Of a DNA stretch of 34,507 bases, positions 33,822 to 34,507 are shown piece by piece. The DNA is from a virus. The DNA is taken from the UHGV virus genome UHGV-0132140. One strand, 5' to 3'. The notes beneath the pieces were generated by a model that had not been told where the DNA came from, did no database searches, and was given only the letters and a program-made list of their open reading frames with translations. A program made the position numbers and the translations under genes. Position 1 is the first letter of the stretch, and each line of letters opens with the position of its first letter.

Positions 33822-34348
33822 TCCCTTCCATCGACCAGACCATGTGCCGGCGCATCATTGAGCGCCTGAAGAACCTGGGAGCGCTGAACTGTCACATCTT
33901 CGAACGGCCCTTCGACCCACAGTACGCCGCCAATGACATCATCATGTCGGCGATGGGCAACAACGGCGTCGTTTTGGTGTGCCCCGGGGACGCGGCAGAA
34001 TACCAGGACGGGCACGGACAAACGGAAGCGCCGACGATGTGGCGTCAGTATTTCATCATCGCCTCCATTTATCACAACGCATCCCTGTTCCCGGCGGCAT
34101 GCCTGACGCCTGATTATTATCTTCGAGCGGTGGGGGACGTGATTGAAGAAGCCCTGTGGAACTGGAATCCTCTTCCCTTTTCCGCACCGGCGATGATGAA
34201 ACCCAAAATCAAAGGCCGTTTTTCCTCATCCGCCATCATTGACGGCGAGAAGCGGCAAATGAACGTTTTGACCGTGGATTACCGTGTCCCGGTTAATATT
34301 AACATGAGAACCAAGCCAGAATTCTATGAACAAAGCATCAACAACTGA
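33818..34348 (+). CDS. structural protein (neck or tail-terminator position)
   Basis: ATG 33818 overlaps the upstream stop (ATGA). Translation begins MIPSIDQTMCRRIIERLKNLG... Confidence 0.45.
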   Translation: MIPSIDQTMCRRIIERLKNLGALNCHIFERPFDPQYAANDIIMSAMGNNGVVLVCPGDAAEYQDGHGQTEAPTMWRQYFIIASIYHNASLFPAACLTPDYYLRAVGDVIEEALWNWNPLPFSAPAMMKPKIKGRFSSSAIIDGEKRQMNVLTVDYRVPVNINMRTKPEFYEQSINN

Positions 34349-34507
34349 CAAGAAGGCCGTGCGGAAGAGCGCCCCGAAGCCGGACGAATCTTCCGAAACC
34401 GCCGGCAAAACGCCGTCCGCACCGGACGAAAAGAAGAAAACAACTGACAAGAAGGCCGTGCGGAAGAGCGCCCCGAAGCCGGACGAATCTTCCGAAACCG
34501 CCGGCAA
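34326..34507 (+). CDS. N-terminal part of the junction-spanning Lys/Pro/Ala/Glu-rich 33-aa tandem-repeat protein (continues at 1..184)
   Basis: ATG 34326. Translation is MNKASTTD[KKAVRKSAPKPDESSETAGKTPSAPDEKKKTTD] x 2 and more. The frame continues across the window junction. Confidence 0.5.
   Translation, partial: MNKASTTDKKAVRKSAPKPDESSETAGKTPSAPDEKKKTTDKKAVRKSAPKPDESSETAG
34343..34507 (+). repeat. 99-bp tandem repeat (at least 1.7 copies here, continuing into bases 1-56 of the window)
   Basis: 34343-34441 is repeated at 34442-34507 and again at window bases 1-56. Confidence 0.9.

Follow-up and report, generated by a model that had tools for sequence, protein, structure and literature searches.

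UHGV virus genome UHGV-0132140 is a stretch of 34,507 nucleotides (nt), here called the window, whose two ends fall inside one small gene, which we refer to as the junction gene. The ends were read directly and compared by script. Bases 1-55 are identical to bases 34409-34463, and the first mismatch sets base 56 (G) against base 34464 (A). A 55-nt exact terminal match cannot have a chance origin, and the terminal repeat described in an earlier note on this DNA is real, with a length of 55 nt rather than 56. The junction open reading frame (ORF) starts at ATG 34326, leaves the window at its last base and, once the end is joined to the start, runs seamlessly to TGA 182-184, encoding 121 amino acids (aa). 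Its 5' part (34326-34507, + strand) holds codons 1-60 and 2 nt of codon 61, which consists of bases 34506, 34507 and 1. The 3' part (1-184, + strand) resumes the frame at base 2, the window length being 1 mod 3, and the script confirmed the frame that had been proposed from ATG 34326 into position 2 and on to the stop at 184. Upstream, the ATG overlaps the end of a 176-aa gene (33818-34348, + strand) of the same overlapping chain by 23 nt. Downstream, the TGA overlaps ATG 181 of a 65-aa gene (181-378, + strand) in the motif ATGA, and the two genes are start-stop coupled. The joined product reads MNKAS-(TTDKKAVRKSAPKPDESSETAGKTPSAPDEKKK)x2-TTDKKAVR-VIRTRTELDGGLVLSLSMKTDTPELPAPVAEALSTLNLVDIK.

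The 55 terminal bases are part of a tandem repeat within the gene. The repeat covers 34340-34507 and continues through 1-55, 223 nt in total, comprising two perfect 99-nt units and a further 25 nt. This amounts to 2.25 copies (74 aa / 33), fewer than the 'at least 2.6' counted before. Unit 1 (34340-34438, + strand, 99 bp) encodes TTDKKAVRKSAPKPDESSETAGKTPSAPDEKKK. Shifted by 99 nt, the joined sequence of the window matches itself perfectly for 124 nt, and that of an allele with three units for 223 nt. The first 69 nt of unit 2 (34439-34507, + strand) reach the end of the window. At its start (1-55, + strand) lie the last 30 nt of unit 2 (1-30) and the 25-nt partial third copy (31-55), which encodes TTDKKAVR, and at base 56 the mismatch shows where unique sequence begins. 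Tandem Repeats Finder omits the array, since the linear window holds just 1.7 copies. Joining the ends, without a gap or extra bases, restores both the repeat register and the reading frame.

Three independent lines of sequence comparison show that the end-to-start join is real. First, three IMG/VR contigs that hold the repeat exit carry a contiguous, intact orthologue with unchanged flanking genes; in related loci (28 loci), intact orthologues start at the equivalent of ATG 34326 and are uninterrupted. Second, the window is collinear along its entire length with Akkermansia phage DTMo-2021a (CP084202.1, 31,946 bp). The ends of that record map to about 12,290-12,350 of the window, beside the integrase gene, and the ends of the window map to the interior of DTMo-2021a, at 19,610 and 19,742. 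Third, the ENA contig ERZ2660659 NODE_111 (24,765 bp) contains the exact 121-aa gene uncut in its interior, and its alignment to the last 10,000 nt plus the first 10,400 nt of the window gave 100.000% identity, ungapped, over 20,184 nt. The exact protein is recorded on 8 contigs in a 15-billion-protein collection, NODE_111 among them. One gene therefore spans the junction, as the earlier note held, in view of the seamless ORF and the identical contiguous gene of NODE_111. Host flanks at the two ends, or a different sequence joining them, are excluded by the same contig together with the flanks of the relatives.

A full temperate-phage gene set, with lysogeny, replication, packaging, head, tail and lysis genes, is present in the window. 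Taken together, the comparisons show the window to be the complete 34,507-bp genome of a temperate tailed phage of Akkermansia muciniphila, assembled as a circle and opened inside a gene. The proposal that it is a rotated circular representation of the whole genome holds for the assembly, the packaged DNA being a separate matter. On packaging there is a hint each way: an Sf6-type small terminase (PF20901, E = 7e-22) in the window, and three prophages of A. muciniphila YL44, possibly unrelated to the window phage, that were reported as 5' cos by PhageTermVirome (PMC10197239, Table 2).

The position of the cut may be explained by the assembly graph. The final 55-mer of the 124-nt segment of self-identity is exactly the sequence with which the window starts. 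In a de Bruijn graph with k=55 this 55-mer would be a vertex with two continuations, one returning to the repeat and one leading on to unique sequence. A contig seeded on the long unique edge would extend round the circle and through the repeat and would end on the same 55-mer, after which the overlap would be trimmed. A k of 55 is the usual final value of SPAdes-type assemblers; related ENA contigs bear SPAdes-style names. Because the window begins exactly at the k=55 branch point, we infer that the cut is due to the repeat and that the contig ends once shared a 55-nt overlap, since trimmed off. The window resembles circular metagenomic contigs with a k-mer end overlap in that its ends join seamlessly and break at a 55-mer; unlike them, it no longer holds the overlap, which was apparently removed. 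The 55 repeated bases thus belong to an internal tandem repeat and are not a terminal redundancy of the phage. Assembled phage genomes ordinarily have such a circular junction. In practice, the break point should be treated as a repeat-induced assembly cut and not as a biological end, the split gene should be annotated across the junction, and the window can be used as a complete phage genome.

Allele sizes of the junction gene were compared inside one 90%-identity cluster. Alleles without a unit encode 55 aa and were found on 4 contigs from two sources. The one-unit allele (87/88 aa) is the commonest by far, with more than 1000 contigs including 2.8-Mb chromosomes that carry integrated prophages. 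The window has the two-unit allele (120/121 aa). Three units (154 aa) occur in BBP49611.1 / WP_155844662.1, encoded on AP021899.1, which has 32,814 bp and stands as its own record within a complete isolate assembly. Among 20 IMG/VR contigs sampled by a conserved 39-mer, 16 had one unit and 1 had two, the other 3 belonging to another tail lineage. The units are identical within an allele and differ between backgrounds, with KSAP in the window and KNVP in both the two-unit IMG/VR contig and the three-unit AP021899.1. Because the unit sequence differs between allele backgrounds, expansions arose more than once. An exact 45-mer spanning the unit-to-unit boundary of the window was absent from IMG/VR and the JGI metagenomes, yet the KNVP-type two-unit allele is present in IMG/VR. 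At either edge of the array lies a copy of a 25-nt direct repeat, which encodes TTDKKAVR, and the zero-unit allele is exactly the product expected from recombination between both 25-nt copies. Smaller in-frame indels between short repeats were seen in other lineages. Units would thus be gained and lost recurrently, by replication slippage or by unequal recombination between the 25-nt direct repeats.

Judged from these alleles, the 33-aa unit is a true coding variable-number tandem repeat (VNTR) with 0-3 units, one being the norm. The concern that assembly had collapsed the copy number is answered for this strain by the second contig, which has different ends and also two units; only long reads would exclude further copies or heterogeneity. 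Between strains the copy number does vary, from 0 to 3. We regard the circular, complete genome and the VNTR together as virtually certain. In phage structural genes, VNTRs such as collagen-like fibre repeats and tape measure length give in-frame units that differ between close relatives via slippage or unequal recombination. The junction gene behaves likewise, and the window's own fibre gene has collagen repeats. In contrast to those systems, the unit here is a long one of 99 bp, lies in a very small ORFan and can be lost wholly, and it is not known to set any dimension of the particle.

The family of the junction gene is narrow. A word-indexed search of 5.8 billion clusters returned 60 clusters, all of 66-102 aa. 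When the 47-aa C-terminal module was run exhaustively with HMMER against 1.84 billion representatives, only five short phage-type relatives came back. Two longer candidates were judged spurious. The score of a 5423-aa repeat protein was the sum of 44 weak repeated matches, and that of a 599-aa repeat protein likewise came from summed weak matches. Source names of the family are 'hypothetical protein' of Akkermansia muciniphila, uncultured Akkermansia or Caudoviricetes. On these searches the junction gene is a lineage-restricted ORFan, known only from Akkermansia phages and prophages. None of the GTDB species-representative genomes contained the conserved 39-mer. The closest comparison is with DTMo-2021a, related A. 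muciniphila prophages and AP021899.1, which share gene order with the window genome-wide at 79-94% DNA identity. They have an orthologous small gene between the same neighbours with the same C-terminal module, and their records assign no function to it.

In every locus examined the junction gene lies between the same 176-aa and 65-aa genes, and the three genes upstream of it (378, 221 and 176 aa) overlap each other. Because the neighbours are constant and starts and stops overlap in all loci, the junction gene belongs to the core of the chain of overlapping genes downstream of the capsid gene. Its place between head and tail genes, already proposed earlier, was borne out: it comes after the small terminase, large terminase, Mu-type portal, protease/scaffold and major capsid genes and before the fibre, lysis and tape measure genes. 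No antisense ORF was conserved within the DTMo lineage or across lineages. BLASTP gave no alignment between the junction protein and the 65-aa protein, and the idea that they are paralogues was dropped. Homologues retrieved for the 196-aa and 176-aa neighbours came almost exclusively from close Akkermansia relatives and carried no annotation; the 176-aa protein had no family match and homologues only in Akkermansia.

The protein has two parts. AlphaFold2, run with the family alignment, predicted residues 1-77 to be disordered, a mixed-charge tail rich in Lys/Pro/Ser/Thr/Glu. The conserved C-terminal module (K75-K121; 41-181, + strand) was predicted to form a beta-hairpin at residues 78-99 (predicted local distance difference test, pLDDT, ~83) and a helix at 106-114, in agreement with the short structured C-terminus suggested before. 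The peptide TELDGGLVLSLSMK lies within this module. Across 27 aligned sequences the C-terminal 44-47 residues have 32 invariant columns, and 43/47 residues of the module are identical to the DTMo lineage, so that it is about as conserved as the neighbouring proteins (82-90% identity). Between the window and DTMo alleles there are 7 differing nucleotides in synonymous codons and 4 nonsynonymous codons, and these counts favour purifying selection on this frame. The N-terminal tail cannot be aligned between lineages, and the DNA alignment with DTMo-2021a breaks between window positions 34358 and 40. Whereas the window has two units of its 33-aa repeat, the tail of DTMo-2021a consists of MSRRATTKKK followed by an acidic Pro/Glu/Ser/Thr segment, in a protein of 102 aa in total. 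The fold of the AbrB/MazE/SpoVT swapped hairpin was considered for the module and rejected, with an hhalign probability of 0.6% against hand-entered reference sequences and no Pfam match.

Family scans (Pfam, PHROGs and NCBIfam) took in the junction protein and neighbours of 143, 158, 378, 221, 176, 65, 196, 133 and 150 aa. Among the neighbours they gave no usable match except a weak minor-head match for the 378-aa protein (Mu F/SPP1 gp7-like, phrog_220, E = 4.5e-5) and the major-head match at 30795-31535. For the junction protein Pfam returned a single insignificant match (E = 0.06), and PDB sequence searches (phmmer, and a hidden Markov model for the 196-aa family) returned nothing.

The junction gene is encoded within the morphogenesis operon, between capsid and tail genes. 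Because of its constant place in the overlapping post-capsid gene chain, its tiny anchor-like fold and its dispensable tail, we tentatively propose that the protein is an accessory of virion assembly at the head-completion or neck stage with a length-tolerant flexible tail, a reading to which we give somewhat less than an even chance. The C-terminal mini-domain would dock onto a partner, and the N-terminal tail would be a flexible appendage whose length is free to vary. Searches with Pfam, PHROG, HMMER and Foldseek found no homology or fold likeness to known adaptor, stopper, terminator or decoration proteins. In the explanation as a whole, which blends topology and VNTR with this functional role, we have moderate confidence.

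Several points weigh against that explanation. NODE_111 may come from the window's own or a related sample, which makes it an independent contig but not necessarily an independent strain, and the k=55 account of the break point is drawn from a numerical coincidence rather than from reads. Neither the word-indexed nor the HMMER searches detected relatives outside Akkermansia phages. Pfam, PHROG, NCBIfam and the PDB gave nothing for the junction protein and its four nearest neighbours, and Foldseek of the AlphaFold2 model against the PDB found no match (best E = 0.7). The AlphaFold2 model of the 196-aa neighbour, built on a shallow alignment, reached a pLDDT of 31. The placement of the junction protein in the virion is itself read from the position of its gene.

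The protein could instead act during assembly and be absent from mature particles, for example by helping, in the manner of a chaperone or scaffold, to build the neck or the collagen-like fibre encoded just downstream. The disordered tail would then be an entropic spacer in a small, disordered, lineage-specific protein, and both the translational coupling within the morphogenesis operon and the dispensability of the tail in natural alleles fit such a factor. Nothing specific speaks against this, but the protein shows no similarity to known tail or fibre assembly chaperones in Pfam or PHROG, and the usual place of a tail assembly chaperone is already taken by a 93-aa gene (6559-6840), a reading that is itself based on position. 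We consider such a non-virion helper unlikely.

The earlier note had seen in the repeat a histone-H1/Hc1/AlgP-like protein that binds or condenses DNA in the capsid or neck. The C-terminal domain of histone H1, chlamydial Hc1 and Pseudomonas AlgP share with the junction protein low-complexity, Lys-containing, Pro/Ala/Ser-rich disordered repeats. Their repeats are short (K/A/P), their basic character is strong and uniform, and their binding to DNA has been demonstrated. The junction protein differs from them in its 33-aa unit, which has 9 basic and 6 acidic residues (net +3 per 33 aa), in a charge that is unconserved in the family and in the lack of a family match. The tail of the window allele does carry a net charge of +8, in every lineage the protein begins with a basic stretch of ~12 residues, the hairpin opens with the invariant and likewise basic KK-VRVIRTR, and the gene lies near that of the weakly matched minor head protein. 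In 86 family members, however, the tail ranges from 9 to 110 aa and its net charge from -4 to +11, zero-unit alleles exist, and tails of the 'MSRR' lineage have a net charge of 0 to -4, a basic tip being followed by the acidic segment. Pfam gave no match to Hc1, H1 or any DNA-binding family, PHROG gave no family, and the AbrB/MazE comparison was negative. Because tail charge and length vary in the family and the unit mixes 9 basic with 6 acidic residues, a conserved DNA-condensing polycation is not supported. The basic tip and KK-VRVIRTR may leave some room for nucleic-acid contact; the DNA-condensing role itself is improbable.

A tail outside the particle, its variable length and charge tuning mucus adherence or escape from recognition by host or immune system, would suit a mucin-dwelling host. 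The region is conserved apart from the hypervariable tail, where exactly the DTMo-2021a alignment breaks, and expansions recur in different allele backgrounds. Yet there is no evidence of surface exposure, a 503-aa protein with two BACON/Ig-like domains is a more conventional glycan binder in the same genome, and relaxed constraint explains the variability of the tail equally well. We rate this reading as improbable at best. Its more specific form is one in which the hairpin anchors the tail on the capsid or neck for external display and the gain and loss of units adaptively and rapidly tunes interaction with mucus or host-surface polymers; that form is highly improbable and, if true, would describe a mucus-adherence device not based on Ig-like domains.

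An artefactual origin of the second unit or of the circular join, through a graph loop traversed once too often or false circularisation through the repeat, would fit the start of the window at the 55-mer branch point, the single unit of most relatives and the missing 45-mer, but is largely refuted, with only a slight residual chance, by the identical two-unit gene inside another contig with different ends and the 8 contigs bearing the protein, by two- and three-unit alleles in other backgrounds including isolate genomes, and by flanks on both sides that are those of the intact gene in every relative.

The junction protein was already in databases as a hypothetical protein. The present analysis rebuilds it correctly over the junction, describes its two-part architecture and demonstrates a coding VNTR of 0-3 units. 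It offers a clean example of a coding VNTR (0-3 x 99 bp) in a core, uncharacterised gene of a structural operon, in a lineage with almost no annotated relatives, and the 99-bp repeat could serve as a strain-typing marker for Akkermansia prophages. The finding is a tidy and ordinary one that leaves current phage biology unchanged, and it would be more interesting only if the tail were surface-exposed or DNA-binding.

The lineage is very isolated, and most structural proteins of the window lack a PHROG. When three of its proteins (the portal and those of 378 and 196 aa) were compared by tblastn with 50,697 deposited phage records, only DTMo-2021a, an unannotated record, was returned. The close relative AP021899.1 (GCA_009731575.1) is a separate 32,814-bp record, and the same family is integrated in 2.8-3.1-Mb chromosomes elsewhere, which suggests that the phage may exist in excised or episomal form or was actively induced in culture.

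Packaging and head genes comprise the Sf6-type small terminase (gene at ~25.7 kb), the large terminase, the Mu-type portal, a Mu gpI-like protease/scaffold and the major capsid protein (30795-31535; phrog_1005, E = 1e-9, with a weak Phage_cap_E match in a relative). The start of the capsid gene is uncertain within 30574-31535: the first in-frame start is GTG 30795, giving 246 aa, and relatives are called at 266-278 aa. A 295-aa ORF in another frame (31145-32032) overlaps the capsid gene and is probably a 158-aa gene (31556-32032) with a spurious extension.

Beyond the 65-aa gene lie a 196-aa (or 185-aa) gene (453-1043, + strand) without a family match and then the collagen-like fibre gene (1158-3116), whose collagen-like repeat segment covers about aa 136-256. 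DNA alignment with DTMo-2021a is lost over 2203-3039, the C-terminal part of the fibre gene, which suggests a swapped receptor-binding domain. The lysis genes (3523-5026) interrupt the structural region, with the fibre gene on one side and the tail-tube/tape-measure genes on the other, an unusual order. Their products are a 150-aa protein in which a membrane segment and an LSGC motif resembling a lipobox were noted, a possible holin (an 83-aa membrane protein), and the Amidase_3 amidase endolysin (4550-5026).

The 503-aa protein mentioned above (5033-6544) shows two tandem BACON/Ig-like domains by eye, with weak matches to Pfam BACON (E = 0.004) and to a Dit PHROG (E = 0.04), and is the more conventional candidate for binding glycan or mucin, the host being a mucin degrader. 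Its gene lies directly upstream of the 93-aa helical gene (6559-6840), a putative tail assembly chaperone by position alone, without a family match. This in turn directly precedes the gene read as the tape measure (6859-8838), which encodes a 659-aa coiled-coil protein with a hydrophobic segment.

The tyrosine integrase is encoded at 12301-13488 on the - strand, and other lysogeny and replication genes encode a BRO/KilAC antirepressor, RecT, a DUF2800/PD-(D/E)XK nuclease and a DnaC/IstB-like ATPase. The DTMo-2021a record begins and ends at the spacer between a 251-aa gene and the integrase gene (window 12268-12300), and the attachment site probably lies in this spacer; an inverted motif, TGTTGATGTCAACAACA, is visible at 12262-12278. 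The intergenic stretch that separates the integrase side from the leftward regulatory genes contains a perfect homopolymer of 20 C (14019-14038), prone to slippage or sequencing error. Straight after the stop of the DnaC/IstB-like ATPase gene (22988-23776), the 17-nt unit CCCTGGAATCTCGTATA occurs in four perfect tandem copies (23777-23844), which resemble iterons or an array belonging to an origin or regulatory site. A degenerate array of five 15-nt units is found at 24513-24587.

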